Shown here: one piece after another, positions 326 to 16,554 of the stretch
How the letters are laid out: every line of letters begins with the position of its first letter
How positions within the stretch are numbered: position 1 is the first letter of the stretch
Assembly (NCBI GenBank): GCA_051876145.1
Contig: JBJEHP010000263.1
Location: 1-25,637, forward strand
Direction: 5' to 3'
DNA: 25,637 nt
From: Coriobacteriales bacterium
GTDB taxonomy: Bacteria; Actinomycetota; Coriobacteriia; Coriobacteriales; QAMH01
Translations under genes and position numbers: made by a program
Notes under the pieces: generated by a model
Seen by the model: only the letters and a program-made list of their open reading frames with translations
Databases searched by the model: none
What the model was told of the DNA's origin: nothing

Positions 326-1807
326 TCACTCGTCGGTGAAGTTCTCGACAAAATCGATGAGCTCTTGGTGCGAGTGGATGTCGAGTTTCTGGTAGATGTG
401 CTTGACGTGCGTTTTGACCGTGTTCTTGCTCACGACCAGTTTTTCCTGGATAAACGCGCTGTTGCGTCCTTTTGCGAGCATCGTGAAGACCTCGGTCTCC
501 TTGGGCGTGAGGCCGCAGCGCCCGCCGATGGCCTCGCAGCGTCGGTCGATCAGCGAGACGTCGTCTTGCGCCTGGGCCTCGAAGACCTTGGGGGACAGCT
601 CGACCTCCTTGAGCGGGACCAGGTCGTGGATCGTCTCGTCAAAGCTGAAGAAATGCAGCACGAACATATCGTAAGCGCAGAAGAGCAGCACGAAGACGCA
701 TGTGACCACCGAGACACCGAGGCTAGTGGTCTGCGAGAGCCAGTTCGTGAGGTTGCCGACCTGCGCGCCGACGGTGACGCCCAGGCTGATGATTCCGCGG
801 CCCCAGCCGATGACGGGAATCGCGTCGAGCGGGTTTTTGCAGGCGACGGAGATGAGCACGATCCAGCTCACCATCTCGAAGACGATGTACCCGCTCCCGA
901 TAATCGCGTTGGGGACGCGGCTTGCGCCGGTCTCGAACAGCAGGACGCTCAAGAAGCCGGCGATGATCATAATCGCGCTGATGCGCACGAGCACGTCGGC
1001 GGGGAAGGGCTTCTTCAGCATGAGCACCCCCACGTACAAGAACAAGATGACCGCAAACGCGATGGCGTATGACGAAGGCGTGCCGTCGGCATCTCCCAGG
1101 CGCAGGCTGTAGCCGAGCGCGAGCGCGAAGAGCAGCAGGCACCAGAACAGCTTTGCCGAAAGCGGCAGAAACGTGTTGGGACGCGTGACCTCCACGTCCT
1201 GCGGCGCGTCGGATTGCGCCTGGTGGTCGAACACGGTCTTTGCCATGGGAATCGTCAGGCAGGCGGCGGCTGCCACGAGCAGGTACGAGAGCACGATATT
1301 GACGAGCGGTGGGAGCAGGTAGACGAGCGCGCCCAGCACGCACGACGTGAGAAACCCGTGCACGAGCGCCCGACGCCACAGCCGCTGCTCCATTCGGCTC
1401 AGCGCGACGGCGACCAGCATGAAGGCGAAGGTCCGCGCGATGCTGCTCAGCGAGGCGCACACGTACACGGCGGGTGCGAAGCCGTTGGCGATGCCCAGGT
1501 TCGTGCCCACGCATCCCACCACGAAACACGCGATCATCAGGGCGAACAGCACGTTGGGGCTGACCCACTTGGGCCGCGTTCGCGCCACGAGTGCGACTGC
1601 GAGCGCAAAGAAGGAGCCTGCGAGCGTGCAGACGTCGCGGGCATGCGGCGCCACGTCGTCAAGCACATCGAACACATGGAGATTGAGGATGGGCGCAACC
1701 ACCAACAGCAGGCACAGGGCAAGCCCGCACATGACGGCTTTCCTGCGCTGGGTGAGCTGCGTCTGCGGCAGCGAGATCTTCAGATTCGTAGCGATGAGAG
1801 ACTCCAT
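326..1807 (-). CDS. Multi-transmembrane LuxR-family transcriptional regulator (membrane one-component sensor)
   Basis: About 12 hydrophobic segments, then a C-terminal LuxR HTH (GLTPKETEVFTMLAKGRNSAFIQEKLVVSKNTVKTHVKHIYQKLDIHS). This architecture is typical of Eggerthellaceae. The RBS is weak, so the start is uncertain. Confidence 0.92.
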   Translation of the reverse strand: MESLIATNLKISLPQTQLTQRRKAVMCGLALCLLLVVAPILNLHVFDVLDDVAPHARDVCTLAGSFFALAVALVARTRPKWVSPNVLFALMIACFVVGCVGTNLGIANGFAPAVYVCASLSSIARTFAFMLVAVALSRMEQRLWRRALVHGFLTSCVLGALVYLLPPLVNIVLSYLLVAAAACLTIPMAKTVFDHQAQSDAPQDVEVTRPNTFLPLSAKLFWCLLLFALALGYSLRLGDADGTPSSYAIAFAVILFLYVGVLMLKKPFPADVLVRISAIMIIAGFLSVLLFETGASRVPNAIIGSGYIVFEMVSWIVLISVACKNPLDAIPVIGWGRGIISLGVTVGAQVGNLTNWLSQTTSLGVSVVTCVFVLLFCAYDMFVLHFFSFDETIHDLVPLKEVELSPKVFEAQAQDDVSLIDRRCEAIGGRCGLTPKETEVFTMLAKGRNSAFIQEKLVVSKNTVKTHVKHIYQKLDIHSHQELIDFVENFTDE

Positions 1808-1835
1808 TCACACTTTGAACTAGTCGCTTCGCACG

Positions 1836-1867
1836 ATTATAGGGTATGCCCCCAGGGTATGCGCCCC
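1836..1867 (-). promoter_or_regulatory. Candidate -10 box (TATAAT) for the LuxR gene with an adjacent tandem AGGGTATGC repeat
   Basis: ATTATA at 1836-1841 reads TATAAT on the minus strand, about 30 nt upstream of the ATG at 1807. AGGGTATGC starts at 1841 and 1854. No consensus -35. Confidence 0.45.
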
Positions 1868-1927
1868 ATCGCCTCGATGGACGGCACAAGCCTTCTCACC
1901 TCACATTCTACCTGCGGAAACGTGAAT

Positions 1928-1944
1928 ATCCCCTCGCTGGGGTG
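1928..1944. promoter_or_regulatory. Candidate regulator site ATCCCC-N5-GGGGTG
   Basis: Imperfect inverted repeat in the divergent LuxR/flavoenzyme intergenic region. Function is inferred. Confidence 0.35.
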
Positions 1945-1974
1945 ACGCGCGTTTTGGCTTGTTTTGGCATTTTG

Positions 1975-2018
1975 TCCGATGGATTGGCGGCATTAGGAGC
2001 GCCATCCAATGGATTGGA
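1975..2018. promoter_or_regulatory. Twin palindromes TCC(G/A)AT-GG-ATTGG(C/A), 30 bp apart
   Basis: TCCGATGGATTGGC at 1975-1988 and TCCAATGGATTGGA at 2005-2018. The second has perfect 6-bp arms and abuts the RBS of the 2029 CDS. Confidence 0.45.
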
Positions 2019-2028
2019 AGGAGAGGGT

Positions 2029-3780
2029 ATGAAGGAAGAGAAGGGCGGCTTCTCGCGCCGTTCCTTTTTGAGGGGCGTTGGCGCCCTGGGCGCCGCGGGC
2101 GTGTTCGGTGCATTGGGTGGCACCGGAGTCGCAAACGCCGTCGAGGTCGTCGACCCCAAGGGCAACGCGACAACTGACTACGTGAAGACCAAGACGGGAT
2201 ACCCCACCGAGAATCCCGGCTGGCTCGGCGAGCCCCCGCAGATCGACGAGAGCCTCATTACCGAGACCATCGACACCGAGGTGCTGGTCGTCGGGTACGC
2301 GACGGGCGGCATGCCGGCAGTCGCGGCTGCGGTCGAAGAGGGCGCGAAGGTCTACGTCATCGACCGTCAGGCAAAGCCGTACCGCATGAAGGAAGACATC
2401 GGCTCGGTGGACAGCCAGATGCAGAAGGACTACTACGCCAAGCACCCCAAGTTCAAGATCGACCACAAGACCATCCTCGAGGAGATCGTTCGCTATGCGA
2501 ACGGCTACGTCAACTACGACCTGGTCAAGGTGTGGATCGAGGAATCCGGCGCATATGTCGACTGGTACAAGGGCGTGCTCGAGTCCACCAACCAGTACCA
2601 TCTCGAGTACGAGGCGGGCCTCGGCACCGAAGACGGCCAGCGTGACCGCGCGTTTGCCACGGGCCACAGCCCCCAGAAAAACGACGACAAGGCCAAGGAC
2701 CTCCCCTCGGTCGAGGAGATCTTCAAGAGCTACATCGACTCCTTCGGACTTGCCGAGTTCCGCTTTGGCGCGTTTTTCGAGAAGCTCGAGCAGGACGAGA
2801 ACGGCCGCGTCACCGGCGCCATCGCGCGCGACGAGAAGACCGACACGTACTTCCGCGTCAACGCGAGCAAGGGCGTCATCTTGGCGACGGGCGGGTACTC
2901 CACCGACGTCGACATGATGCGCGCGCTGCAGCCCGAGGTCCTGAACGTCAAGGTGGCCGTCGACGGCAGCGGTAACCCGTCGTCGTCGCAGGGCATCAAG
3001 GCCGCCATGTGGGTCGGGGCACGCAAGGACCCGGTCGGCACCTCGATGCTGTTCAACCGCGCCTGCTGCAGGCCCGACGCGACTACCGGCTACGGCACGC
3101 CGGGCCGCTGGTTCTGGTTTGGCGAGCAGCCCAACCTCAAGGTCAACCTCAAGGGCAAGCGCTTCTGCAACGAGTCCGGCCCCTACGACTACATGCTGCA
3201 TTCCGCCTATATGCAGCCCCAGCACACCTACTGCACCATCTGGGACAAGAACCACCAGAAGTACGCCGAGCAGTTCGACGAGGTCGGCTGCTGCAGGCTC
3301 TTCCCCTTCCCCAACGGCGCGAAGAACAACATCCCCATGGCAACCGTCGAGGGCATGATCGACAAGCTCGTCGACGAGGGCTACGTCGTCAAGGCGGACA
3401 CGCTCGAGGAGCTGGCGCAGGGCCTTGGCCTTCCCGTCGACGCGTTTGTGGAGCAGGTCAACACCTACAACGGCTACTGCAAGAAGAAGCATGACCCCGA
3501 TTACTACAAGGAGCCGCACCGCCTGACCCCGGTCGACACCGCTCCCTTCTATGGGGCGCGCACCGGCGCCTGGCACCTGACCACGCTCGACGGCGTCATG
3601 ATCGACCCCGACATGCGCGTGCTCGACCAGAACAACGAGCCCATCCCCGGCCTGTTCGCCACGGGCGACTGCTCGGGCGGCTTCTTCTCCACGTCGTACC
3701 CGAACCTCGCAACGGGCCTTGCCTGCGGTCGCACCATGACCTTCGGCCGCCATGCGGGCAAGTACGTCGCAACCCACTAA
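2029..3780 (+). CDS. Tat-exported FAD-dependent oxidoreductase (flavocytochrome c / FAD_binding_2 flavin subunit), substrate unknown
   Basis: Twin-arginine signal (FSRRSFLRG...ANA). FAD motifs VLVVGYATGG, GVILATGGY and IPGLFATGD. RBS GGAAGGAGAGGG precedes the ATG at 2029; the ORF-track extension to 1846 is unlikely. 583 aa. Confidence 0.9.
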   Translation: MKEEKGGFSRRSFLRGVGALGAAGVFGALGGTGVANAVEVVDPKGNATTDYVKTKTGYPTENPGWLGEPPQIDESLITETIDTEVLVVGYATGGMPAVAAAVEEGAKVYVIDRQAKPYRMKEDIGSVDSQMQKDYYAKHPKFKIDHKTILEEIVRYANGYVNYDLVKVWIEESGAYVDWYKGVLESTNQYHLEYEAGLGTEDGQRDRAFATGHSPQKNDDKAKDLPSVEEIFKSYIDSFGLAEFRFGAFFEKLEQDENGRVTGAIARDEKTDTYFRVNASKGVILATGGYSTDVDMMRALQPEVLNVKVAVDGSGNPSSSQGIKAAMWVGARKDPVGTSMLFNRACCRPDATTGYGTPGRWFWFGEQPNLKVNLKGKRFCNESGPYDYMLHSAYMQPQHTYCTIWDKNHQKYAEQFDEVGCCRLFPFPNGAKNNIPMATVEGMIDKLVDEGYVVKADTLEELAQGLGLPVDAFVEQVNTYNGYCKKKHDPDYYKEPHRLTPVDTAPFYGARTGAWHLTTLDGVMIDPDMRVLDQNNEPIPGLFATGDCSGGFFSTSYPNLATGLACGRTMTFGRHAGKYVATH

Positions 3781-3795
3781 AGAGAGGAGGAAAAC

Positions 3796-4500
3796 ATGAG
3801 CGAAGACATCAAGATGGAAGACAACACGGAAAACGCCCCGCTCGACGCCGCGTCGCAGGATGAGGCCACGAGCACCGGGAAGAAGATTTCCAACAAGTTC
3901 AAGAAGCACAAGGCGCTGTCCATCGTCGGCATCGTCGTCGTGGTGCTGGTCATCGCCGGCATCGGCGCTTTTGCCTGGCATAACACGCCGGGCTTTTGCG
4001 GCACCGTCTGCCACGACACGATGAACTACTACTCGACGAGCTACGCCAACGACCCGACGACGCTCGCGTACCAGCACGGGCACATCACGGGCAAGGGCGC
4101 CGACACGCTGCGCGACGGCGTCGCCGACAAGAACAACGCCTGCCTGGACTGCCACCCCGCATCCACGGGCGAGCAGATCAAGGAAGTCGGCATGACCATC
4201 GACGGCGACTACACCATCGACACGGATGGCAAGCTGGTCATCGAAGGCGGCCATTACAACGCCGACAAGGAGTTCTGCCTGCAGTGCCATGACTACGACA
4301 AGGTCATCCAGGCGACTGCCAACTACAACGGCGGCAAGCACGACGGCGCGAGCGGCACGTTCAACCCGCACGCGTCTCACCAGGGCGACCTGGAGTGCGG
4401 CACCTGCCACAGCGTCCACGGCACCTCCAAGCTGTACTGCACCTCCTGCCACAATGCAGAGGTCCCCGAAGGCTGGGAGACCATGGCCGATTCCCAGTAG
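3796..4500 (+). CDS. Membrane-anchored multiheme cytochrome c (four CxxCH plus one CX3CH)
   Basis: One N-terminal TM helix. Heme motifs CGTVCH, CLDCH, CLQCH, CGTCH and CTSCH. Strong RBS GAGGAGG. Starts 15 nt after the flavoprotein stop. Confidence 0.9.
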   Translation: MSEDIKMEDNTENAPLDAASQDEATSTGKKISNKFKKHKALSIVGIVVVVLVIAGIGAFAWHNTPGFCGTVCHDTMNYYSTSYANDPTTLAYQHGHITGKGADTLRDGVADKNNACLDCHPASTGEQIKEVGMTIDGDYTIDTDGKLVIEGGHYNADKEFCLQCHDYDKVIQATANYNGGKHDGASGTFNPHASHQGDLECGTCHSVHGTSKLYCTSCHNAEVPEGWETMADSQ

Positions 4501-4531
4501 GGAAGGCAACGCACCATACGGCACGACTTGG

Positions 4532-4570
4532 GATGGCGGCTTGGCGTACTAGCCGCCATCTCGTTTTTTT
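4532..4570 (+). terminator. Intrinsic terminator after the cytochrome gene
   Basis: 10-bp stem GATGGCGGCT/AGCCGCCATC with a 9-nt loop, followed by TCGTTTTTTT. Confidence 0.8.
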
Positions 4571-4621
4571 GCGGGGCGTCACGTCAGGGCGGCTTCGCGC
4601 GAGAAAGGGAACACACTCGTC

Positions 4622-6715
4622 ATGAACTTGGTTGGAATGATCGGCCTGCTCGCGGCATTTGCCGGGGCGTGCCTCAGCGTTGTGAGCCTGGCCTGCGGAC
4701 ATGCGCTCAGGGGCAAGCCCGTGGCCGAGACGCTGAGCTGGGGCGGTCGCATCGCGGCGCTCGTTGCCTTTGCGGGCTTGAGCGTCTCGTGCGCCGTGTT
4801 GGTGTGGTGCTTTCTCACAGATGACGTCGGGATCCAGTACGTGCTCGACAACCATGTGAGCAGCACCGGTGCCTGGGGCGTGTTCTACCGGGTGAGCGGC
4901 CTGTGGGCGGGGCGCGAGGGTTCGCTGCTGCTCTGGGCGTGGCTCATCGGATTGTTCGGGACGCTCGTGACCATGCGCCGCATGGCAAAGGCCGAGCCGC
5001 TCGACAACATCGCCGTGCTCGTCATCCAGCTCGTGCTCGTCGCCTTTGCGGGGATTATGCTCTTCTCCGCGGAGAACACGCCGTTCACGGCGACGGACCC
5101 GATCTACTTCAACGCCGACGGCACGCTCACTTCCGCCGCGCAGCTACTCGGCATGAACAGCCTGCTGCAGCATTGGGCGATGGCCATTCACCCGCCGATG
5201 CTCTTCTTGGGCTATGCGGGGCTGACGGTGCCGTTTGCCTACGCGATCGCCACCTGCGTCGTTGGCAGCAGCGACAGCCAATGGGTGCTTTGCAGCGAGC
5301 GCTATGCTCTGGCGGCGTGGATGTTTTTGACCCTCGGCATCGGACTGGGCGCCGTGTGGGCGTACGTGGTCTTGGGCTGGGGCGGCTACTGGGGCTGGGA
5401 CCCCGTCGAAAACGCGTCGCTTCTGTCGTGGCTGGTCTGCGTCGCCCTCATCCACAGCTTCACCGTCTACAAGAGGCGTGGCGTGTTCAAGTGCTGGGCG
5501 GTCATGAGCGCGTGCCTGGCGTTCGCGTTTTGCATCGTGGGCACCTTCATCAGCAGGAGCGGCATCGTGCAGTCCGTGCACGCCTTCGAAGGCGATGCCG
5601 TGAGCACCGCGCTGTTCGGGACGCTCATCGTGGCGAGCATCCTCGCGGGTGCGGTCGGGTGCCTGGTGCGGAAGGCAAGCTTCGCGCCCGAGGCGGGTGC
5701 TCCCGAGGCGGAGAGCATGGTGAGCAGGCACGGGGCGTACTTCGTCAACAACGTCTTCATGATCTTGATGGCGTGCGCGCTCGCGTATTTGACCGTCGCC
5801 CAGGCGCTGCCGACGTGGCTGCCTTTAGGCGGACACAGCATTCCCGCCGGTACCTACGAGGCCATTGCCCGTCCCGTCGGCGTGGTCTACCTGCTCATGA
5901 TGGCGGTGTGCCCGCTTCTGGGGTGGTACAAGACGGACCCGAAGGCGTTCGTGCGCAAGGCGCGCGTCCCCGCCGTGTGCGCGGCGGTGCTGTTTGCGAT
6001 TCTGGCCCTCTACTGGGGCAGCGTGCTGCTACCCGCGTATGACGGCATCGTCTCGGCGGCGGACGAGCATGCCGAGCTGGTCTTGGAGCAGGGGCCCGCG
6101 TGGTATTACAACGGTCTGGCGCTTATCGCGTTTCTCGTGGCCTCGCTGCTCATCTTCAACAGCTGCTACCAGCTGACCCGCGTGGTGCGGGCGTCGGGCA
6201 GAAGCGTCGTCTCGCGCCTGGGCAGCTGCATCAGCCATCTGGCAGTTGGCATCATCCTCATCGGGCTGGTGGGAAGCGCGATGTACGTGACCGAGGCAAA
6301 CGGTTACCTCCCGTACGACGAGCAGACCAACACCAGCAGCGAGCGCTTTTCGATCGACGCCTACGAGCTCGAGCTGGCTAATGCGCATGCGGGCATGGCG
6401 GACAACCTCAAGGATGTCGAGTACGCCGTCGACCTGGACGTGTATCGCGACGGGGCGCGCATCGAGCAGGTGCGGCCCGCGATTACGCTCGTCGCGGCGA
6501 CCCAGCAGCAAAAGTACACGGCGGGCGTCGTTGGGCTGCCGCTCGAGGACGTGTTCGTGGTGTATCGCGGTGCCGGCATGGACAATGCGGGCCTTCACCT
6601 CGACGTCCGTGTGAACCGGCTCATCTCGTTCGTGTGGGTGGGCATGGTGTTCTTGGTTGCGGGCATGTTCTTGACCATTCTGGGTCCGCGGGAGGCGCCC
6701 GTGCGACGGGGGTGA
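4622..6715 (+). CDS. ccmF: Cytochrome c biogenesis heme lyase, CcmF/NrfE family
   Basis: Trp-rich WGWGGYWGWDPVENASLLSWL motif, LWAGREGSLLLW and HPPMLFLGY. Many TM segments and a C-terminal soluble loop; 697 aa. Confidence 0.9.
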   Translation: MNLVGMIGLLAAFAGACLSVVSLACGHALRGKPVAETLSWGGRIAALVAFAGLSVSCAVLVWCFLTDDVGIQYVLDNHVSSTGAWGVFYRVSGLWAGREGSLLLWAWLIGLFGTLVTMRRMAKAEPLDNIAVLVIQLVLVAFAGIMLFSAENTPFTATDPIYFNADGTLTSAAQLLGMNSLLQHWAMAIHPPMLFLGYAGLTVPFAYAIATCVVGSSDSQWVLCSERYALAAWMFLTLGIGLGAVWAYVVLGWGGYWGWDPVENASLLSWLVCVALIHSFTVYKRRGVFKCWAVMSACLAFAFCIVGTFISRSGIVQSVHAFEGDAVSTALFGTLIVASILAGAVGCLVRKASFAPEAGAPEAESMVSRHGAYFVNNVFMILMACALAYLTVAQALPTWLPLGGHSIPAGTYEAIARPVGVVYLLMMAVCPLLGWYKTDPKAFVRKARVPAVCAAVLFAILALYWGSVLLPAYDGIVSAADEHAELVLEQGPAWYYNGLALIAFLVASLLIFNSCYQLTRVVRASGRSVVSRLGSCISHLAVGIILIGLVGSAMYVTEANGYLPYDEQTNTSSERFSIDAYELELANAHAGMADNLKDVEYAVDLDVYRDGARIEQVRPAITLVAATQQQKYTAGVVGLPLEDVFVVYRGAGMDNAGLHLDVRVNRLISFVWVGMVFLVAGMFLTILGPREAPVRRG

Positions 6716-6871: not shown

Positions 6872-7747
6872 TCACCCGAGCAAATGACTCGAGCGGTACG
6901 TGGAGAGAATCTTGTTCGCGATGGAATCGTAGACGTCAAAGGCGTTTTCGGAGAGCTCGGTGATGTCGTTTTGCAGGCTGTCGATAATTGCCGGCGTCAT
7001 CTTCTCGAGCTTGGCCATTCCGAGTTCCGTAATCTTAAAGCAGGTCGCGCGTCGGTCGTGCGGGAGCTTGAGACGCTCGAGACGTCCGTGCCCCGCAAGC
7101 TTGGAGGCGGCGACGCACACCTCGTTGCTCCTAAGCAGCAGCTGACGTGACAGTTCCTTGACCCGCATGCCCTGCGGGCTGCGCGAGAGCAGGTGCAGGA
7201 TGCGGTACTCGTTCAGGCTGATGTTCGCGCGGCGCATGTGCGCGTTGAGCGAGCTCAGCGTCACGAGCGAAGAATCGATGTAGGCGTGCTCCACGCTGAT
7301 GCCATCGATCTTCATGTAATCAAGCCGGCGCTCCAAGACGGTGCTCGCCGAATCGCGCTTGGTCATGGCGAGCTCGTTTTCGTTGTACACAGACCAGAAC
7401 TCGTGTGCGAGCTGGCACAGCGCCGGGTCGACCTTGGCGATGAGCGCAGAGCCTGCCGGGGTGATGGAGAGGTGCACGACGCGGCGATCCGACGCATCCT
7501 CGGAACGCTCGATAGCGCCCAGGGCTTCGAGGTCGTTCAAGGCGCTCGTCACCGAGGAAGGCGAGAGCCCCAGCGCCTCGGAAAGCGCTTTGGCGGTGCG
7601 CGCCCCGCCTTCGGCCGCAAGTAGGCGCAGCAGCAACCGATACTGTGTGAGCGAGATACCCGCATATTCCGTGACGAGGTCGCCCGCTTGCCGTGCGAGC
7701 AAGATGGTGACGGTTATCCAGTTGTCATGGCCCTCGTTCGCGATCAT
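6872..7747 (-). CDS. Tandem (double) MarR-family winged-helix regulator
   Basis: Two MarR repeats: ISLTQYRLLLRL...DRRVVHLSITPAG and ISLNEYRILHLL...DRRATCFKITELG. GGAG RBS upstream. Confidence 0.88.
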   Translation of the reverse strand: MIANEGHDNWITVTILLARQAGDLVTEYAGISLTQYRLLLRLLAAEGGARTAKALSEALGLSPSSVTSALNDLEALGAIERSEDASDRRVVHLSITPAGSALIAKVDPALCQLAHEFWSVYNENELAMTKRDSASTVLERRLDYMKIDGISVEHAYIDSSLVTLSSLNAHMRRANISLNEYRILHLLSRSPQGMRVKELSRQLLLRSNEVCVAASKLAGHGRLERLKLPHDRRATCFKITELGMAKLEKMTPAIIDSLQNDITELSENAFDVYDSIANKILSTYRSSHLLG

Positions 7748-7761
7748 GGCATGCTCCGAAC

Positions 7762-7783
7762 ATTAGTTTTGGCAATTACTAAT
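7762..7783. promoter_or_regulatory. Candidate MarR operator ATTAGT-N10-ACTAAT
   Basis: AT-rich inverted repeat in the divergent marR/molybdoenzyme intergenic region. Confidence 0.45.
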
Positions 7784-7909
7784 TCTATAAAATTCTACTA
7801 CGTCGAACGAGCTTCTTTCCGAGCATGAAAGCGCAGGCGAGGCCCCACAATGGACAGTGAGAAAGCGCGCGAGGCGCGCATGGAGAGACTGTTCGTGGAA
7901 GGGAGCCAA

Positions 7910-10324
7910 ATGTCTGAGGAAAAATGGGTTTGCACGGCATGTCCTGGATGGGGCGATCACGAGTTCTGCGCGATCAAGACCATCGTTTCCGATGGCAAGA
8001 TCGTCCGCACCGAGGCGGTCGACTACACCGGCGCGGAGGCCGGCGAGGGGCATTGCTGCCAGAAGGGCACCGCATCGTGGCGTCAGGTGTATGCCGACGA
8101 CCGCCTGCTGTACCCGCTCAAGCGCGCCGGCGAGCGCGGCGAGGGCAAGTGGGAGCGCATCAGCTGGGACCAGGCACTCGACGAGATCGGCGCCAAGATG
8201 CTCGAGCTTGGCGAGAAGTACGGCCATGACACCATCGCGTTTTGGAACATCACGACCTCGCTGCCGCCGTCGCAGGGGCTCGACACCCTGCTCGGCAACC
8301 GACTGTGCGGCCTGTGGGGCGGCACCGATCCGCTCAACGCGTACGGCCTGGACAACGGCCCGTACTACGCGTCGTATTTCGACCTGGGCGACTTCTACAA
8401 GTACATGATGATCGACCCCGTCAAGTTCGATGCGACGAGCTACCTCATCATCTGGGGCGGCAACCCGGTGGAAAACCAGCAGCGTGTGGCAAAGCACATC
8501 GTCGAGGCCAAGTCGCGTGGGGCGAAGATCGTTGACGTCGGTCTGCTGTTCGATGCCTCTGCGGGCTACGCCGATTGGTTCATCCCGGTCAAGCCCGGCA
8601 GCGACACGGCGCTTGCGCTGTGCATGGCGCGTCAGATTATCGAGCGCGGTGAATACGACCGCGCGTTCATGCAGCAGTACACGGTTGCTCCGCTGCTCGT
8701 CGACGTCGAGACGGGCAAGTTCGCCACCAACGAGGGCTGGTTCTACTACTGGGACGAGGAGTCCGGTTCCGTCAAGCCGACGGCGAAGGGCGCCGAGGAA
8801 TACGAGGGCACGCCGGCCTTCGAGGGCAGCTACGAGCTTGACGGACGCACCTACAAGCCCGCATTCCAGCTGCTCAAGGAGCATGTTGCGCCCTATACGC
8901 CCGACTATCAGGAGACGATCACGGGTGTTCCCGCGGCAGATGCGGTCAAGCTCGGCGAGGAGTACTCGTCGCACCGCCCGGCGTTCATCGTCGGCGCGCT
9001 CGGCATGCGCTACCAGAACCAGGGCGATGCGTACCGCGCGTTCTATCTGCTCGGCATGCTCACGGGCAACCTGGGCAGCGCCGCCGGCGGCGTCACGAGC
9101 GAAATCCAGCCGTGCGGCTGGCCGCTCGGCTTCAACAACCCGGCGGTCATCTTCCCCAACGGCCGCGAGGCGGACAAGACCGTCTTCGTCAAGAACGGCG
9201 ACTTTTTCGAGGCGGCCAAGGAAGGCAAGTACAAGGGCTTCATCAAGGTGGCTGGCAACCCGGTCCACAATTGCCCCAACCGCAGCCGCTGGATCGAGGA
9301 CACCTTCCCGCAGATGGAGCTCATCGTCGACGTGGACGTGTGGATGACCGATACGGGCGAGTACTCCGACTACGTCCTCCCGGCGTGCATGCCGTTCGAG
9401 CGCGAGGAGCTCATCGCCGCGGCGCAGTACAACCATGTGGTGCTGCAGGAGCCGGCCGTCGAGCCGTGCGGCGAGTGCAAGGATCCGTCGTTCATCTACG
9501 GCGGCCTGGCCGAGCGCATCGGGCTGGGTGAATATTTCCGCAACGAGGCTGGCGAGCCGATGGTGGCGGCCGACTGGATCCGCATGCGCCTGAACTCCCC
9601 GCAGCCGTTCCTGGCAAAGATCGACCCGCCGCTCACCTACGAGCGCCTGAAGGAGGAGAAGATCATCCGTGCGGCCGTGCCGCCTATCCCGTGGGATCCG
9701 TTCTTTGGCATGAAGTTCGCCACGCAGACGGGCCACATGGAGTTCTACTCGGAGCGCCTGAACACCATCGGGCTGCCCATGGCGACGTACCACGAGCCCT
9801 ACGAGGTTCCCACCAACGCGAGCCTCGCGAACGGCACTGCCAAGCACCGCTACCAGTTCTTCAGCGGGCGCCAGCGCTTCTTCATGCAGTCGATGTTCAC
9901 GGATGACCCCGTGATGGCCGAGCTCTCGGGCGGCAAGCCCACCGGGCGCATCAACCCGATTGACGCGGAGGCCGAGGGCATCGTCGACGGCGACAGGTGC
10001 GAGGTCTTCAACGAGCGCGGGCACGTGGTGATCGAGATGCGCCTGGACCAGGCGATTCCGCCGGGAACGGTGCAAGTGTGGTTTGGCTGGCGCAAGCGCC
10101 AGTTCGATGCCAACGAGGGCGAGGGCAGCGGCATGTACTCCGAGCTGCTCGTTCCGCTGGGCGATAACGACACGCTCGACGAGGCAGCGCAGTACTGGTA
10201 CCAGTGCGTGCGCGAGGATGGCGCCGTCGGCTACATCTTGGGCGGCACCTCGTACTCCGCGATGGCGGGTGCGTGGGACACCATCTGGGACTGCGCGTGC
10301 GACATCCGCAAGATCGAAGCTTAG
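7910..10324 (+). CDS. Molybdopterin (bis-MGD) oxidoreductase catalytic subunit, DMSO reductase superfamily, no export signal
   Basis: Family motifs RLLYPLKR...GEGKWERISWDQALDEI, IIWGGNP, WFIPVKPGSDTALAL and TDTGEYSDYVLPA, plus a C-terminal molybdopterin-dinucleotide domain (INPIDAEAEGIVDGD). RBS GGGAG favours the ATG at 7910 over 7850. Confidence 0.92.
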   Translation: MSEEKWVCTACPGWGDHEFCAIKTIVSDGKIVRTEAVDYTGAEAGEGHCCQKGTASWRQVYADDRLLYPLKRAGERGEGKWERISWDQALDEIGAKMLELGEKYGHDTIAFWNITTSLPPSQGLDTLLGNRLCGLWGGTDPLNAYGLDNGPYYASYFDLGDFYKYMMIDPVKFDATSYLIIWGGNPVENQQRVAKHIVEAKSRGAKIVDVGLLFDASAGYADWFIPVKPGSDTALALCMARQIIERGEYDRAFMQQYTVAPLLVDVETGKFATNEGWFYYWDEESGSVKPTAKGAEEYEGTPAFEGSYELDGRTYKPAFQLLKEHVAPYTPDYQETITGVPAADAVKLGEEYSSHRPAFIVGALGMRYQNQGDAYRAFYLLGMLTGNLGSAAGGVTSEIQPCGWPLGFNNPAVIFPNGREADKTVFVKNGDFFEAAKEGKYKGFIKVAGNPVHNCPNRSRWIEDTFPQMELIVDVDVWMTDTGEYSDYVLPACMPFEREELIAAAQYNHVVLQEPAVEPCGECKDPSFIYGGLAERIGLGEYFRNEAGEPMVAADWIRMRLNSPQPFLAKIDPPLTYERLKEEKIIRAAVPPIPWDPFFGMKFATQTGHMEFYSERLNTIGLPMATYHEPYEVPTNASLANGTAKHRYQFFSGRQRFFMQSMFTDDPVMAELSGGKPTGRINPIDAEAEGIVDGDRCEVFNERGHVVIEMRLDQAIPPGTVQVWFGWRKRQFDANEGEGSGMYSELLVPLGDNDTLDEAAQYWYQCVREDGAVGYILGGTSYSAMAGAWDTIWDCACDIRKIEA

Positions 10325-10337
10325 GAGGGAGATGACA

Positions 10338-10796
10338 ATGGCTGACAAGAACACCATCTGGGCGCATTCGCCCGCTCAAGACGAAGTGACCGACGATACG
10401 ATCTTTGTCGACCTGCTGCGTTGCACGGGCTGCTGGACGTGCGCGTTGTCGTGCATGACGGGCAACAAGCTCAAAGACGGGCAGTACTTCGTCAACGTGC
10501 GCACGCTCGGCAGCGGCGAGGGCATCGACCGTCCGGCGGGTGTGTGGCCCGACCTGCACATGTCGTGGATGCCGTACTACACGCATGCGTGCATCAAGTG
10601 CAAGCCCCGCACCGATGCCGGCGAGCTTCCGTACTGCGTGAAGAGCTGCCCCAACAAGGCGCTTGCCTTTGGTCCCGATGCCGTCGAGAAGATCGAGGCG
10701 GCGCGCAAACGCGGTGCGCGCATCTACCGTCTTCCGGCGTGGGAGCATTCGAAGGAAAACGTCATCTACGCGAGTCCCGACCGCGAGATTATCTAG
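10338..10796 (+). CDS. Small iron-sulfur subunit (probably 2x[4Fe-4S]) of the molybdoenzyme
   Basis: CTGCWTCALSC, CIKC and CVKSCP give 8 Cys. RBS AGGAGG overlaps the upstream stop. 152 aa, no TM helix. Confidence 0.88.
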   Translation: MADKNTIWAHSPAQDEVTDDTIFVDLLRCTGCWTCALSCMTGNKLKDGQYFVNVRTLGSGEGIDRPAGVWPDLHMSWMPYYTHACIKCKPRTDAGELPYCVKSCPNKALAFGPDAVEKIEAARKRGARIYRLPAWEHSKENVIYASPDREII

Positions 10797-10835: not shown

Positions 10836-11092
10836 GTGACACCGCGGCCGCCTCCTGGTCGTTTTCGCGCCATGCCGGGTGGCCATTGGCGGCGTGGCGT
10901 GCCAAACGCCCATTGGCGGGTCGCGGTGGCGCGGAATCAACCATCACCGGGATGGCGCGCCAAACGCCCATTGGCGGGTCGCGGTGGCGTGGGATCGGCC
11001 ATCACCGGGATGGCATGCCAAACGCCCATTGGCGGGTCGCGGTGGCGTGGGATCGGCCATCACCGGGATGGCATGCCAAACGGCCACTGGCG
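10836..11092 (+). repeat. Intergenic modular repeat, cluster 3 (leader plus about 3.3 tandem 58-bp units)
   Basis: Units start at 10901, 10959, 11017 and 11075. Consensus GCCAAACGCCCATTGGCGGGTCGCGGTGGCGTGGGATCGGCCATCACCGGGATGGCAT. Lies between convergent genes. Confidence 0.92.
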
Positions 11093-11131: not shown

Positions 11132-11371
11132 TTAGCGGCTCAATGCCTGCAATACCCGGGCGAGACGGAGTTCGTACTCGAGGTCATGGAGGTTGACTTC
11201 CTCGCCATCGATGAACAAGCGCGACGGACGGGGGCCGGAGATTCCGCCGCCGCCCGGCTCGATGCTCTTGGTTACATCGGCGCCGATGCCCGCGTACTGC
11301 GCCGCGGCAATGACGCGCTCGAAGAGCCAGTCAGCGTCTCCGTTCTGGTAGCCCTTGATCTCGATTTTCAT
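11132..11371 (-). CDS. Small thioredoxin-like protein (MTH895 / redox-active disulfide protein 2-like) lacking CxxC
   Basis: The pattern MKIEIKG...L.E.V..A...AGI.A.V.K...LFIDGEEV matches the family by eye. It has an RBS and lies downstream of an ArsR gene, the usual context. No Cys residues. Confidence 0.6.
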   Translation of the reverse strand: MKIEIKGYQNGDADWLFERVIAAAQYAGIGADVTKSIEPGGGGISGPRPSRLFIDGEEVNLHDLEYELRLARVLQALSR

Positions 11372-11388
11372 GGCTTCCGCCCTTTCCC

Positions 11389-11404
11389 ATCAAAAAATTT
11401 TGAT
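11389..11404. promoter_or_regulatory. ArsR-type operator ATCAA-N6-TTGAT
   Basis: Perfect ATCAA-AAAATT-TTGAT just upstream of the thioredoxin-like gene. Confidence 0.65.
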
Positions 11405-11445
11405 ATATCGAATACAGCGAACCTGCGGTGATGACACCTGCGCGC

Positions 11446-11757
11446 CTAGTCGCACGCGGGGTTGTGCGTTGCCACGCCCTCGACTTTCGTGAGCTCCGCG
11501 AGCCGTGCGATGGCGTGCGCCGCGCCGTCGGGGTTGATGGAGTAATACGTCCACTTGCCCTCTTGACGTGCGTTGACGATGCCCGACTCGACCAGGATCT
11601 TCATGTGGTGCGAGAGGTTGGACTGGCTGATCTGAATGTGCTCGAGCAGGTCGCACGCGCACTTCTCGCCCGTGCGCAGGCGCTCGAGCGCCTGGAGGCG
11701 ATACTCGTTGCAGAACGCCTTGAACACCGTGGCGTCCACTTGAATTTGCTCGTCCAC
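11446..11757 (-). CDS. arsR: ArsR/SmtB-family metalloid-sensing repressor
   Basis: FKAFCNEYRLQAL, EKCACDL (alpha3 Cys motif), SQSNLSHHMKIL and RQEGKWTYYSI. GTG at 11757 has a G-rich RBS; ATG at 11769 is an alternative start. Confidence 0.88.
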   Translation of the reverse strand: MDEQIQVDATVFKAFCNEYRLQALERLRTGEKCACDLLEHIQISQSNLSHHMKILVESGIVNARQEGKWTYYSINPDGAAHAIARLAELTKVEGVATHNPACD

Positions 11758-11773
11758 GTGGCCCCCCATTCAA

Positions 11774-12005: not shown

Positions 12006-14717
12006 CTAGAGCTTTGCCACCTGGATGGCGCAGACCTTGTATTCCGGCGCGTGGCTGATCTCGTCGAGCGCCGGGTTGGTGAGCCAGTTGCTGTTGCCGT
12101 CCTGGAAGTGGAACGGCATCCAGGTCTCGCCGGCGCAGGTCTTGCCGGACACGCGCGCGGTCGACTCGATCTGCCCGCGGCGCGACCAGACCCTGACGCG
12201 GTCGCCGTCGGCGATGCCGCGCTGCTGCGCGTCTTGGGTGTTGATCTCGATGAAGGACGTGCCCTGGATCTCGTTCAGGCCCTCGGTGCGCGCCGTCATC
12301 GCGCAGGCGTTGTACTGGTTGATGATGCGGCCGGTGGTGAGCACGAGCGGGTACTCGGCGTCGGGCAGCTCCGCAGACGGGCGGTACTCGGCAGCGGAGA
12401 ACAGGCCCTTGCCGCGCGCGAACTCGCCCACGTGCATGATGGGCGTGCCCGGATGGTCGGGACCGGTGCACGGCCACTGCAGACCGTTGCCACGGACCTC
12501 CTTGCTGTCGAGGCGCGCGTGGCTGATACCCGCGAACGACGGGGTGACCGAGGCGATCTCGTCCATGATCTGGGCGCTTGTAAGCTCGGGCTGCGCGTAC
12601 CCCATGCGGTTCATGATCTGCGTGAAGATCCACGTGTCGAGCTTCTCGTCACCTGCCACCTCGATGGCCTTGCGCACGCGCTGCACGCGGCGCTCGGTGT
12701 TGGTGAACGTGCCCTCCTTCTCCGCAAAGCTGCGGCCGGGCAGCACGACGTCGGCGTACTTGGTGGTCTCGGTCAGGAACAGGTCGTCGATGACCAGGAA
12801 CTCGAGGTTTTCGAGCGCGCGGATGATGTGGTGCGTGTCGGCATCGGTGCGCACCGGGTCCTCGCCAAAGATGAACATGCCCTTGATCTTGCCCTCGATG
12901 GCCGCGGGGAAGCACTCTGTCGCGGTGATGCCGGGTTCCTTGGGCAGGGTGACGCCCCAGGCCTTCTCGAACTTCTCCATGACCTCGGGGCGCACGAGCT
13001 TCTGATAGCCGGGGAAGTCGACGGGCTGCGCGCCCATGTCGCAGGCGCCCTGCACGTTGTTCTGCCCGCGGATGGGGTTGACGCCGCAGCCCTTGCGGCC
13101 GAGCTTGCCCGTGAGCATGGCGAGGTTCGAAAGCCCCATGACGCCTTCGGTGCCGGTCGAGTGCTCGGTCACGCCCAGGCAGTAGATGATCGGGGCGGTC
13201 TTGGCACGCGCGTACATCTCGGCGGCGGCCACGAGGTCGTCGGCGTCGATGTGGCATATCTCCGCCACGCGCTCGGGTGTGTAGTCCTTCACGAGCTCGG
13301 CGAGCTTCTCGTAGCCTTCGGTGCGCTGCTCGATGAACTGCTGGTCGGCGAGCCCCCTCTCGATGATGACGTGCGCCATGCCGTTGGCAAAGGCGACGTT
13401 GGTGCCGGGGCGCAGCTTGAGGTGTATGTCGGCTTTGGAGGAAAGCCAGATGTCGCGCGGGTCGACCACGATGAGGCGCGCGTCGCGCTCGACTGCCTGG
13501 CGGACCTGCATGCCGATGACCGGGTGCGCCTCTTCGATGTTGGAACCGACGAGCATGATGGTCTCGGCGTCGCGCGTGATGTCGGCAATCGTGTTGGTCA
13601 TGGCGCCGGAGCCGAGCGTGATAGCGAGTCCGGACACGGTGGAGGAGTGACAGACGCGGGCGCAGTTGTCGACGTTGTTGGTGCCAAACGCCACGCGCGC
13701 CATCTTCTGGAGCATGTAGACGTCCTCGTTCGTGGAACGCGAGCAGGCAAACGCCGCGAGTGCGCTGCCGCCGTAGGTGGCCTTGAGCTCGGAGAACTTG
13801 GAGGCGACCAGGTCGAGTGCCTCGTCCCAGCTCGCGGGCTCGAGCTCGCCGGTCTGTTTGCTGCGGATCATCGGGGTGCGCAGGCGGTCGGGCGCATCGA
13901 TGAAGTCGAAGCTGCCACTACGCCCCTTGACGCAGGTCAAGCCGTTGTTGGAGGGGCCCTTGGCGCCCTCGACGTCGACGATCTGGTTGTCCTTCACGAT
14001 GAGGTCGAGCTGGCAGCCCGTGCCGCAGTGCGGGCAGGTGGTGCGCACGCGGTGCGTCTCCCAGGCGCGGTAGTGCCGGCGGCGCTTGACGGTGAGGGCG
14101 CCGGTCGGGCACGCCTGCGCGCAGTTGCCGCACGACTCGCACATCGTCGTCTTCCAGTCCTCGCCGAACGGCGCCAGGATGGTCGTGCGCATGCCGCGGT
14201 TGCCGGCGCGCAGCGTGTGGTTGCACGCGAGCTTGTTGCACGCGCCGATGCAGCGCTGGCAGCGGATGCACAGGTTGGCGTTGTAGGAGAGGAACGGGTT
14301 GCTGTCGAGGATGGGCTCGTTTTTCTCCGCGCGTGGGTAGGGCGTCTCTGTCACGCCGTAGTCGCGGCACAGGTCCTGCAGCTGGCAGGCGCCGTTTTTG
14401 GCGCACGAGAAGCAGAAGTCCGTCGTGGACAGGCCGTGGTCGGCGATGAGCAGCTGCAAGATGCCCTTGCGCTGCGCGATGACGCGCGGGGAGTCGGTGA
14501 GGATGCGCATGCCGTCTTGGACCTGGGTGTTGCAGGCAGTGACGAGGGCGTCTTGCCCCTCGAGCTCGACCGAGCAGATGCGGCACGAGCCGATGGCGTT
14601 TGCCCCGCGCAGGAAGCACAGCGTGGGGATCTTGAAGCCGGCCTTGCCGGCAGCGGCGAGGATCGTCATCCCCTCGCGCGCGGTGACAGCCTGGCCGTTG
14701 ATGGTGAGGTTAAGCAT
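12006..14717 (-). CDS. fdhF: Formate dehydrogenase alpha subunit (Cys-ligand type) with N-terminal [2Fe-2S]/[4Fe-4S] module
   Basis: IPTLC...GSCRIC...TAC ([2Fe-2S]), H..FCFSC...C, CIRCQRC and CESCGNC clusters, and TTCPHCGTGC...CVKG. Active-site NCARVCHS and IRGQNNVQGACDMG. 903 aa. Confidence 0.93.
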   Translation of the reverse strand: MLNLTINGQAVTAREGMTILAAAGKAGFKIPTLCFLRGANAIGSCRICSVELEGQDALVTACNTQVQDGMRILTDSPRVIAQRKGILQLLIADHGLSTTDFCFSCAKNGACQLQDLCRDYGVTETPYPRAEKNEPILDSNPFLSYNANLCIRCQRCIGACNKLACNHTLRAGNRGMRTTILAPFGEDWKTTMCESCGNCAQACPTGALTVKRRRHYRAWETHRVRTTCPHCGTGCQLDLIVKDNQIVDVEGAKGPSNNGLTCVKGRSGSFDFIDAPDRLRTPMIRSKQTGELEPASWDEALDLVASKFSELKATYGGSALAAFACSRSTNEDVYMLQKMARVAFGTNNVDNCARVCHSSTVSGLAITLGSGAMTNTIADITRDAETIMLVGSNIEEAHPVIGMQVRQAVERDARLIVVDPRDIWLSSKADIHLKLRPGTNVAFANGMAHVIIERGLADQQFIEQRTEGYEKLAELVKDYTPERVAEICHIDADDLVAAAEMYARAKTAPIIYCLGVTEHSTGTEGVMGLSNLAMLTGKLGRKGCGVNPIRGQNNVQGACDMGAQPVDFPGYQKLVRPEVMEKFEKAWGVTLPKEPGITATECFPAAIEGKIKGMFIFGEDPVRTDADTHHIIRALENLEFLVIDDLFLTETTKYADVVLPGRSFAEKEGTFTNTERRVQRVRKAIEVAGDEKLDTWIFTQIMNRMGYAQPELTSAQIMDEIASVTPSFAGISHARLDSKEVRGNGLQWPCTGPDHPGTPIMHVGEFARGKGLFSAAEYRPSAELPDAEYPLVLTTGRIINQYNACAMTARTEGLNEIQGTSFIEINTQDAQQRGIADGDRVRVWSRRGQIESTARVSGKTCAGETWMPFHFQDGNSNWLTNPALDEISHAPEYKVCAIQVAKL

Positions 14718-16554
14718 ACTGGATCCTCCCTCCTTCGAGATTGCCGCAGCCGTAATGGTCGCAGCGCAGGCAGCGGCCGCACTCCTGCTCGATCTCCTCG
14801 AGGCTCATCTCGTTTTCGGTGCACAGAAAATCGTGCTTGCGCTCGCGCGCCGGGCGCTCCGTGATGTTGGCGCGGCCAGTGGGGACGCGGTTGTTGAGCT
14901 TGGCTGCGGGTGCGGTCGCGCCGCAGTCGAGCTTGTGGTGGTAGCCGAGGTACTCGTCGATGTTGCGCGCGGCCACCTTGCCGGCGCCGATGGCGCGGAT
15001 GACGGTTGCGGGGCCGGTCTGGCACTCTCCGCCGACGAACAGCCCCTTGCCCTCGTAGCCGGCACCCTCGAGGAAGTCGTTGGAGACGAGGCGGTCGCGG
15101 TCGGTCTCGAGGCCGAACTTGGCGAACTCGGCGCTTTCGATGCTCTGGCCGATCGCCATGAGGATGATGTCGACGTCGAGGCGCACTTGGGGTTTGGAGG
15201 CATCGACGGGGGTGGGGCGGCCGCCGCGGATGGGGCCCGCCATCTGCGGCTGGACCAGCAGCGCGCAGCAGTTGCCGTCCTCGTCGACCTCGATGCCGGC
15301 GGGCGACTGGAGCGTGAGCAGTTCGACGCCCTCGGCGACGGCGGCCTCGATTTCGCTCGGCAGTGCCGTCATGTCGTCACGACGCCTGCGGTAGACGATG
15401 CTCACCTCTTCGGCGCCGGCTCGCACGGCGGTGCGCGCGCAGTCCATGGCGACGTTGCCGCCGCCGACCACGGCGACCTTCTTGCCGGAAAAGTCGGGCG
15501 TCTCGCCGTCGCCGATGCCGCGGAGCAGCTGCACGGCGGACATGACGTTGCCCGCCTGCGCGTTGTCCATCTTCAAGATCTTGCCGCCGTGGGCGCCGAT
15601 GGAGAGGTAGACCGCGTCGTAGCTGTCGACGATCTGCTGCATCATCTCGGCGTCGACCTGCGTCTCGAGCTTGACGTCGATGCCGCCGACGGAGAGCACC
15701 GCGCGGATGTCCTCGTCGAGGCGCTCGCGCGGGAAGCGGTAGGCGGGGATGCCGTAGCGCATCATGCCGCCGAGCTGCTTGCGCGACTCGAACACCGTGA
15801 CGTCGTGGCCCATGAGCGCAGAGAAGTACGCGCAGGTCAGACCCGAGGGGCCGCCGCCGATGACGGCGATCTTGCGGTTGGTGCGCGGCGCGCGCTCGGG
15901 CACGTCCACCTTGTCGGCCGCGATCTGGTCGACGGCGAAGCGCTTGATGCCGCGGATGTTGACGGGCGCGTCGACGATTTGACGGCGGCAGCGGATTTCG
16001 CAGGGGTTCTCGCAGATGAACGCGCAGGAGGTGGGGAAGGGGTTGTCCTTGCGGATCATCTTGATGGCGCCGGCGTAGTCGCCTTCGCCCACGAGCGCGA
16101 TATAGGCGGGGATGTTGACGTGCGCGGGGCACATGGCCTCGCACGGGAGGTTCATCTCGATTTCCGGCTTGCAGGAGTGCTCGACGAGGTGGCTCTCGTA
16201 TTCGTCGGCAAAGACGTCGAGGCTCTCGAGCACGGCCGTGGCCGCTTCCCAGCCGATGGCGCAATCGGAGGTGTCGCGGATCATGGTCGCGAGATTTTTC
16301 ACGTCGTCGAGCAGAGAGGCGTCTGCCTCGCAGTCGCGGATCTTGCAGAGCATCCTGTTGAGCTGCGGCAGGCCGTCGCGGCAGGGGATGCACTTGCCGC
16401 AGGTCTGCGCTGCGCTCGCCTCGGTCAAGGTGACCTGGAACGCAATCGGGCACATGCCGGTTGGCGTCGCGCTGATGCGGCGGTCGAATTTCTCCATGAA
16501 CGTGGCGATGCGTGCATCCACGCCAGCGTTTGGAGTGATTCTCACTTTGCTCAC
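14710..16554 (-). CDS. FAD/NAD(P)-dependent FDH partner: NuoF-like C-terminal [4Fe-4S] domain fused to a GltD/NfnA-like oxidoreductase
   Basis: QTCGKCIPCRDG...CAIG (NuoF N3-type cluster). PCEAMCP...NPFPTSCAFICENPCE, GGGPSG and GGGNVAMDCAR...VYRR. GTG start; overlaps the fdhF start by 8 nt. Confidence 0.88.
   Translation of the reverse strand: MSKVRITPNAGVDARIATFMEKFDRRISATPTGMCPIAFQVTLTEASAAQTCGKCIPCRDGLPQLNRMLCKIRDCEADASLLDDVKNLATMIRDTSDCAIGWEAATAVLESLDVFADEYESHLVEHSCKPEIEMNLPCEAMCPAHVNIPAYIALVGEGDYAGAIKMIRKDNPFPTSCAFICENPCEIRCRRQIVDAPVNIRGIKRFAVDQIAADKVDVPERAPRTNRKIAVIGGGPSGLTCAYFSALMGHDVTVFESRKQLGGMMRYGIPAYRFPRERLDEDIRAVLSVGGIDVKLETQVDAEMMQQIVDSYDAVYLSIGAHGGKILKMDNAQAGNVMSAVQLLRGIGDGETPDFSGKKVAVVGGGNVAMDCARTAVRAGAEEVSIVYRRRRDDMTALPSEIEAAVAEGVELLTLQSPAGIEVDEDGNCCALLVQPQMAGPIRGGRPTPVDASKPQVRLDVDIILMAIGQSIESAEFAKFGLETDRDRLVSNDFLEGAGYEGKGLFVGGECQTGPATVIRAIGAGKVAARNIDEYLGYHHKLDCGATAPAAKLNNRVPTGRANITERPARERKHDFLCTENEMSLEEIEQECGRCLRCDHYGCGNLEGGRIQYA

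Follow-up and report, generated by a model that had tools for sequence, protein, structure and literature searches.

The 25,637-nucleotide stretch of DNA that was analysed here (the window; contig JBJEHP010000263.1 of the Coriobacteriales bacterium assembly GCA_051876145.1) contains, at positions 7910-10796, a pair of genes for the catalytic and iron-sulfur subunits of a molybdenum (or tungsten) enzyme. It is probable that this pair is a MarR-controlled operon encoding a soluble cytoplasmic alpha-beta enzyme with a bis-pyranopterin guanine dinucleotide (bis-PGD) cofactor, and that this enzyme represents an uncharacterised monophyletic offshoot of subfamily II of the dimethyl sulfoxide (DMSO) reductase family, i.e. 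the branch of NarG, PcrA and EbdA. No paper describing the family was found in literature searches.

The large subunit gene (7910-10324, plus strand) encodes a Mo/W-bisPGD catalytic subunit of 804 amino acids without a signal peptide, and the small subunit gene (10338-10796, plus strand) an iron-sulfur (Fe-S) subunit of 152 amino acids with eight cysteines. The plus-strand open reading frame (ORF) of the large subunit, 7850/7910-10324, has a third-position G+C content (GC3) of 0.89, in a window whose overall G+C content is about 64%, and all homologues match this frame; for these reasons an antisense ORF at 7763-10357, which is longer than the plus-strand one, was considered a GC-rich shadow. 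The ATG at 7910 was taken as the correct start because the homologues begin with MSEE and a Shine-Dalgarno (SD)-like GGAAGGGAG is present 6 nt ahead of it. The small subunit starts at ATG 10338, with the SD AGGAGGGAG 6 nt upstream and a gap of 13 nt to the large subunit gene; this start was preferred to ATG 10332, which abuts the same SD. The pair begins and ends where the sequence-only reading, an earlier annotation made by a model from the DNA letters, had placed it.

A Tat or Sec signal is excluded for the large subunit, considering that the first predicted cluster ligand is already residue 11. In the window, no gene for a membrane anchor or for a TorD/NarJ chaperone was found after the enzyme pair, and no gene for a gamma (heme) subunit or other third gene was found in the window or in related loci. 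The cytoplasmic two-subunit layout claimed in the sequence-only reading, with a short eight-Cys Fe-S partner, was confirmed in this way.

The large subunit matched the Pfam domains PF00384 (Molybdopterin, 1e-37) and PF01568 (Molydop_binding, 1e-14), while its N-terminal Fe4S4 domain was under the Pfam cut-off. The best NCBIfam match was the DMSO_red_II alpha model, with 316 bits as compared to a cut-off of 985 bits. When the protein profile was compared with the PDB, PcrA was the top match (1e-86), followed by EbdA and NxrA, and the same three proteins were the best hits with Foldseek and the AlphaFold2 (AF2) model of the large subunit (PcrA: 4e-55, TM score of 0.81, 22% identity). Acetylene hydratase, NarG, PsrA and FdhH ranked behind these three. 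The AF2 model had a predicted local distance difference test score (pLDDT) of 88.4 and a predicted TM score of 0.91. A search of the ESM Atlas returned generic molybdopterin oxidoreductase clusters only. A family-specific insert of about 40 residues is located ahead of the last strand of the large subunit.

The small subunit, in which Pfam recognised Fer4_7, Fer4_9 and Fer4_11, has two ferredoxin-type Cys groups with the pattern CxxCxxCxxxC ... CxxCx11CxxxCP. Of the Cys groups of FdhB, PsrB, PcrB and NarH-type subunits, just the first (I) and the last (IV) have a counterpart here, and all eight cysteines are invariant in 56 family-linked sequences of 28-90% identity. The small subunit is therefore predicted to be a two-[4Fe-4S] ferredoxin-like module that would keep the cluster facing FS0, the proximal cluster of the large subunit. 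Its gene lies directly downstream of the large subunit gene in nearly all related loci that are long enough to show it.

Relatives of the large subunit fall in more than 120 clusters of 48-98% identity, nearly all of them from Coriobacteriales, Eggerthellaceae and Gordonibacter metagenome bins. Among the genomes with members are those of Gordonibacter sp. 28C (two copies), Ellagibacter isourolithinifaciens DSM 104140, and Adlercreutzia spp. ZJ473 and ZJ176, as well as many ruminant-gut metagenome-assembled genomes (MAGs), such as RUG12840, whose member is 99% identical. With scoring limited to the top two candidates of each genome, a family-level match was observed in 7 of 401 sampled genomes of the class. 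The source genome is itself a ruminant-gut MAG (1.95 Mb, 88% complete) with at least 30 Mo-bisPGD (PF00384) matches; it contains a second complete member of the family, paired with a LysR regulator on contig C212, and two partial members. About 80 PF00384 matches were counted in Gordonibacter sp. 28C (3.9 Mb), and most of the matches of the two genomes belong to clades without a characterised member.

A phylogenetic tree was built with a quick LG+G4 model from 66 catalytic subunits; they came from the source genome and from Gordonibacter sp. 28C, and also included representatives of the family and four references from E. coli. Both the long branches and the simple model call for caution. The family is monophyletic, with a Shimodaira-Hasegawa-like approximate likelihood ratio test (SH-aLRT) support of 100 and a stem of 0.79. 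Together with its sister clade it is placed within the clade holding E. coli NarG (SH-aLRT 86), beside the DmsA clade. Against the family profile, paralogues of the NarG branch scored 330-400 bits and the Gordonibacter-type catechol dehydroxylases, discussed below, 100-200 bits. The family does not cluster with any characterised enzyme; tight clustering of this kind was one of the outcomes that the sequence-only reading had named as refuting its proposal.

On the tree, the closest relatives of the family (support 91) are a small Tat-exported clade, also uncharacterised, which comprises a protein of the source genome (contig C85) and two of Gordonibacter sp. 28C (loci L115 and L130). Like the family, this sister clade has an Asp in the Mo-ligand column, but it keeps the classical HxxxCxxxC motif, whereas the family has C-x4-D-x3-C-x29-C. 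In the source genome, the locus of the sister member (C85:7493-11691) shows an RRDFLK Tat signal, HxxxCxxxC, a 207-aa beta subunit and a 391-aa third gene. This organisation suggests that the family derives from an exported alpha-beta-gamma ancestor, of which it would be a reduced, cytoplasmic form. With respect to the sister, the signal peptide and the membrane/heme subunit would have been lost, the beta subunit would have shrunk from four Fe-S clusters to two, and the FS0 motif would have changed from H-x3-C-x3-C...C to C-x4-D-x3-C-x29-C, with Asp148 probably retained at the Mo-ligand position.

The comparison with the established members of subfamily II gave a mixed result. The best fold and profile matches, PcrA (4ydd), EbdA (2ivf), NxrA (7b04) and NarG (1q16), share with the family an Asp in the Mo-ligand column and an FS0 domain before the Mo domains; in contrast, the family is only 14-23% identical to them and has neither a Tat signal nor membrane attachment. 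A conserved Asp ligand of Mo defines subfamily II, and the FS0 His ligand is seemingly conserved in all its members (PMC8840923). In the family an Asp (D148, 180 of 180 sequences) occupies the column of NarG Asp222 and is the predicted Mo ligand, and the grouping by fold and phylogeny is that of subfamily II, though the NCBIfam score is far under its cut-off. On the other hand, the FS0 of one His and three Cys (H-x3-C-x3-C...C) is replaced by a motif with one extra residue, in which C11 takes the column of the His and D16 the position of the second Cys. A beta subunit with four clusters (three [4Fe-4S] and one [3Fe-4S]) is replaced by the 152-aa protein, which retains groups I and IV and, by its Cys pattern, two clusters. 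The gamma subunit and Tat export or membrane binding are absent.

Predicted ligands of molybdenum and of the proximal cluster

Residue conservation was counted in 180 distinct family sequences. C11, P12, G13, G15, D16, C20, C50, K52, G53, D148, R654, R656 and Q660 are invariant, and W14 and H17 are each found in 179 sequences. The N-terminal motif and the NAYGLDNG segment described in the sequence-only reading are both present in the window as written, the former with Asp at the position of an FS0 Cys. However, two of the cysteines of the N-terminal motif represent minority states: C8 was observed in 33/180 sequences, with Tyr in 147, and C49 in 23/180, with Ile in 157. The conserved cluster motif is therefore C-x4-D-H-x2-C-x29-C and not the fuller Cys pattern of the window protein.

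The ligands were assigned from alignment columns. When the family was aligned with the E. coli references by MAFFT, D148 shared its column with NarG Asp222, FdhH Sec140, the Cys of NapA and the Ser of DmsA. In a profile alignment to T. kivui FdhF, D148 fell on the ligand Cys (D-N-G-P versus C-H-A-P), and the AF2 model places it in a loop just ahead of the helix 150-159. These alignments agree with the sequence-only reading, which had suggested Asp rather than Cys or Ser, and point to Asp148 as the predicted protein ligand of Mo.

As far as FS0 is concerned, MAFFT placed C11 in the His-ligand column of NarG, and C20 and C50 on the third and fourth Cys. The D16-x3-C20 spacing is that of the second and third ligands in NarG, DmsA, FdhF and the sister clade, and matches the Cys-x3-Cys of subfamily II FS0. 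In addition, a hidden Markov model (HMM) alignment put D16 on the Cys/Asp of the 'G-[C/D]-H' motif of Gordonibacter-type enzymes. The predicted ligands are thus C11, D16, C20 and C50, with Asp16 as a putative carboxylate ligand, and we read FS0 as a Cys3-Asp, or 3Fe, cluster. No description of an Asp-ligated FS0 was found in literature searches.

It is possible, but rather unlikely, that FS0 is instead a [3Fe-4S] cluster on C11, C20 and C50, or that the fourth ligand is His17 rather than Asp16. The N-terminal domain has just three invariant cysteines, H17 is almost as conserved as D16, the MAFFT alignment sets D16 one column off the NarG Cys, and the Pfam Fe4S4 domain does not reach its cut-off. 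This solution is nevertheless opposed by the strict invariance of D16, by its exact x3 spacing to C20, and by its position on the Cys of the CH motif of the Gordonibacter-type enzymes. The fourth invariant Cys of the large subunit, C797, was considered as a further FS0 ligand and rejected: it belongs to the last beta strand of domain IV, outside the FS0 domain, and since this strand is universal in the DMSO reductase family, C797 is unlikely to reach the cluster.

If the predictions for Asp16 and its neighbours hold, the rule of a His ligand in the FS0 of subfamily II is broken, and the family contains the first Asp-ligated FS0 known to us in the superfamily.

Regulators and proposed chemistry

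The regulator gene (6872-7747, minus strand) is divergent from the enzyme pair and upstream of it. Its 291-aa product matched MarR_2 (3e-22) and MarR (2e-19) over two stretches each, which corresponds to two MarR domains in one chain. Homologues of known structure are nonspecific and gave no clue about the ligand. Between the regulator and the large subunit gene lies a putative promoter/operator region of 162 bp (7748-7909, unstranded), read directly from the sequence, which is AT-richer and includes the large-subunit SD; no inverted repeat of at least 8 nt (6-nt seed) and no sigma-70-like consensus site were found in it.

The context of the family was analysed in 78 related loci by GC3-based gene calling followed by clustering. 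Just two features recur, the small subunit downstream and a divergent regulator. The latter is a tandem MarR in 20 loci (the same regulator cluster as in the window) and a LysR in 25 others. The paralogues are each paired with a separate one-component regulator, divergent and of one or the other type.

The direction of the reaction, the class of substrate and the electron donor can only be guessed. Most likely the enzyme is inducible and acts as a reductase on an organic compound; reductive dehydroxylation is one possible chemistry, to be taken as a candidate only. Gordonibacter sp. 28C, Ellagibacter and Adlercreutzia, which represent polyphenol-transforming genera, contain multiple paralogues of the family. 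Paralogues with private small-molecule regulators, in lineages that transform polyphenols and steroids, argue for organic substrates over inorganic oxyanions, and the cytoplasmic site, the low-potential-looking two-cluster partner and the strictly anaerobic host argue for reduction over hydroxylation. In the mechanism that we propose, a cytoplasmic donor (candidates are a ferredoxin, a hydrogenase or a soluble formate dehydrogenase) would reduce the two beta clusters, and electrons would flow from these to FS0 and then to the metal. As Mo(IV), coordinated by two dithiolenes and presumably by Asp148, it would take an oxygen atom from, or otherwise reduce, a small organic compound, probably derived from the diet. 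The substrate or its precursor may also release the MarR repressor.

Some observations weigh against a MarR-controlled reductase of subfamily II as described here. The support of the NarG-containing clade is moderate (86), and long branches meet there. The ligands are assigned from columns rather than from coordinates; pairwise alignments with PcrA and EbdA offset their Asp from D148 by one and three residues, respectively, in a gapped loop, and the pLDDT of the AF2 model is below 50 at residues 15-17. The FS0 His ligand, reportedly kept in all subfamily II enzymes, is absent. Finally, the related loci offer no clue to the substrate, given that neighbours other than the regulator are not conserved and no transporter is consistently linked, and a look for RNA data on the operon returned none.

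Two other activities known in subfamily II were considered. A cytoplasmic reductase of an inorganic oxyanion, such as nitrate, chlorate/perchlorate or selenate, on which most reductive Asp-ligated enzymes of the subfamily act, would fit the fact that PcrA, a perchlorate reductase, is the best structural and profile match, as well as the predicted Asp ligand. We consider it unlikely, because the identity to PcrA is so low, several paralogues per genome have each their own MarR or LysR regulator, the source genome already encodes a NarG with the FYDWYxDLPPASP motif, and no oxyanion transporter or gene handling nitrite or chlorite is nearby. Slightly less credit is given to an oxidative, oxygen-independent hydroxylase or dehydrogenase like EbdA or steroid C25 dehydrogenase, in which electrons would leave via the small ferredoxin-like subunit. 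EbdA is the second-best structural match and several hydroxylases belong to subfamily II, but the known ones are periplasmic, contain a high-potential heme b subunit and require a high-potential acceptor (PMC8840923), whereas the enzyme of the window is cytoplasmic, has no heme subunit and comes from a strictly anaerobic gut lineage that is rich in reductases.

A wider reading of the organic reductase is advanced tentatively and as a whole: that the family makes up a cytoplasmic subclass of Asp-ligated Mo enzymes not described before, with a carboxylate (Asp16) on the proximal cluster, that it expanded among Coriobacteriia that transform polyphenols and steroids, and that it carries out organic reductions beyond those of the Cys-ligated catechol dehydroxylases, for example the removal of non-catecholic hydroxyl or other oxygen functions. 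Gut Coriobacteriia have 30-80 molybdenum enzymes per genome, and to our knowledge studies of these have covered the catechol dehydroxylase clades only. The dedicated MarR and LysR regulators provide a practical route to the substrates, considering that Gordonibacter sp. 28C, Ellagibacter isourolithinifaciens and Adlercreutzia are culturable and that an expression system for these hosts has been published.

Relation to the catechol and steroid dehydroxylases

The catechol dehydroxylases of the Gordonibacter type consist of two cytoplasmic subunits, a smaller bis(molybdopterin guanine dinucleotide) subunit without signal peptide and an Fe-S protein (PMC7028382, PMC11887054), and their genes are usually near LuxR regulators and major facilitator superfamily (MFS) transporters (PMC7028382, PMC11887054, PMC12771579). 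The group includes Dodh, Cldh/(-)-Eddh, Gp Hcdh, Gs Vadh and Eadh1-3. The family resembles it in the cytoplasmic alpha-beta architecture, in the small Fe-S partner, in the lineages in which it is found, in its predicted induction by a dedicated regulator, and in an N-terminal W..G-[C/D]-H..C motif. Residues 11-20 of the window protein (C-PGW-GDH-EF-C) align residue for residue with the C..W..PPG-[C/D]-H..C of the Gordonibacter-type enzymes, as found in Table S4 of PMC11887054 and on contig C24 of the source genome. A review describes the Gordonibacter proteins as lacking an Fe-S motif (PMC11574389); the conserved pattern suggests that they may bind a non-canonical cluster.

The two groups differ in the residue at the ligand position, which is Cys in the catechol dehydroxylases and Asp in the family, in their regulators, and in their position on the tree. 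Motifs were counted in the catalogue of Coriobacteriia catechol dehydroxylases in Table S4 of PMC11887054, which covers about the first 400 residues of each protein. PPGCH was found 72 times, PPGDH 13, CYGPR 49 and CKGPR 169, while CPGWGD, WGDH, LDNG and GLDNGP had zero occurrences. The genome table of the same paper lists Gordonibacter sp. 28C, yet neither of the two family members of this strain is in the catalogue, which places the family outside the published catechol dehydroxylase class. To identify the Gordonibacter-type enzymes on our tree, PPG[CD]H and Cys motifs resembling CYGPR at the ligand position were used. A fully supported (100%) split separates these enzymes from the family and leaves them on the same side as the FdhF and NapA clades. 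An approximately unbiased (AU) test rejected a joint clade of the family and the Gordonibacter-type enzymes (difference in log likelihood of 158.6, p 3e-10).

It is therefore improbable that the enzyme of the window is a divergent Gordonibacter-type catechol dehydroxylase, i.e. a homologue of Dodh, Cldh, Gp Hcdh or Eadh that removes the para-hydroxyl of a catechol, despite the common layout, the common N-terminal motif and the proximity of the two kinds of genes (4 kb) in Adlercreutzia sp. ZJ473. In addition to the Cys ligand, the low scores with the family profile, the split and the catalogue, the family has MarR or LysR regulators instead of LuxR and no linked MFS transporter. The likeness in layout to catechol dehydroxylases that the sequence-only reading had pointed out was confirmed, and is accompanied by the shared N-terminal motif; a kinship was not supported. 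The preferred placement, on the Asp-ligated scaffold of nitrate and perchlorate reductases, means that these bacteria have arrived at a soluble Mo enzyme of two subunits by a second route, independent of the first.

In the Adlercreutzia locus (L016:9103-14376), the genes after a 75% identical orthologue, which comes with a tandem MarR of its own, are those of an EamA transporter, a LuxR regulator and a dehydroxylase of the Gordonibacter type that contains WSPPGDH at the N-terminus. The two enzyme classes may serve one pathway in this strain.

In the corticoid 21-dehydroxylase cluster of Eggerthella lenta, Elen_2451-2454, a molybdopterin oxidoreductase is accompanied by a 4Fe-4S partner, and FdhD and an SPFH protein are encoded as well (PMC11835702). 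Compared by description only, the cluster resembles the window in the oxidoreductase, in the 4Fe-4S partner and in the related gut lineage, whereas its FdhD and SPFH neighbours are both absent from the window. In Gordonibacter sp. 28C and in the source genome, the sole FdhD gene is close to a formate-dehydrogenase-like gene with an in-frame TGA (selenocysteine), at a distance of a few kb in Gordonibacter sp. 28C, and not beside a member of the family.

Neighbouring genes

The small subunit gene is followed by a repeat array, a convergent gene for a 79-aa protein, an ArsR gene and a formate-dehydrogenase-like gene on the opposite strand. The array (10895-11092), directly downstream of the small subunit gene, consists of 3.4 copies of a 58-bp unit with 93% matches. 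The ArsR-family regulator (107 aa) and the 79-aa protein, encoded just downstream of it on the same strand (11132-11769, minus strand), are apparently unrelated to the Mo operon.

The region 12006-16554 (minus strand) encodes an FdhA-like subunit of 903 aa, with 2Fe-2S and NuoG-type Fe-S domains and a Mo domain, and after it a 614-aa protein with NADH_4Fe-4S, Fer4_20 and Pyr_redox_2 domains. The pair resembles a soluble formate dehydrogenase linked to NAD(P), and could supply cytoplasmic reductases with electrons. On the other side of the operon, at 326-6715, a LuxR-family regulator (493 aa, minus strand) is divergent from a set of genes whose products are a flavoprotein reductase with FAD_binding_2, a multihaem protein similar to cytochrome c3 and a lone CcmF. 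The whole forms a reductase module separate from the Mo operon.

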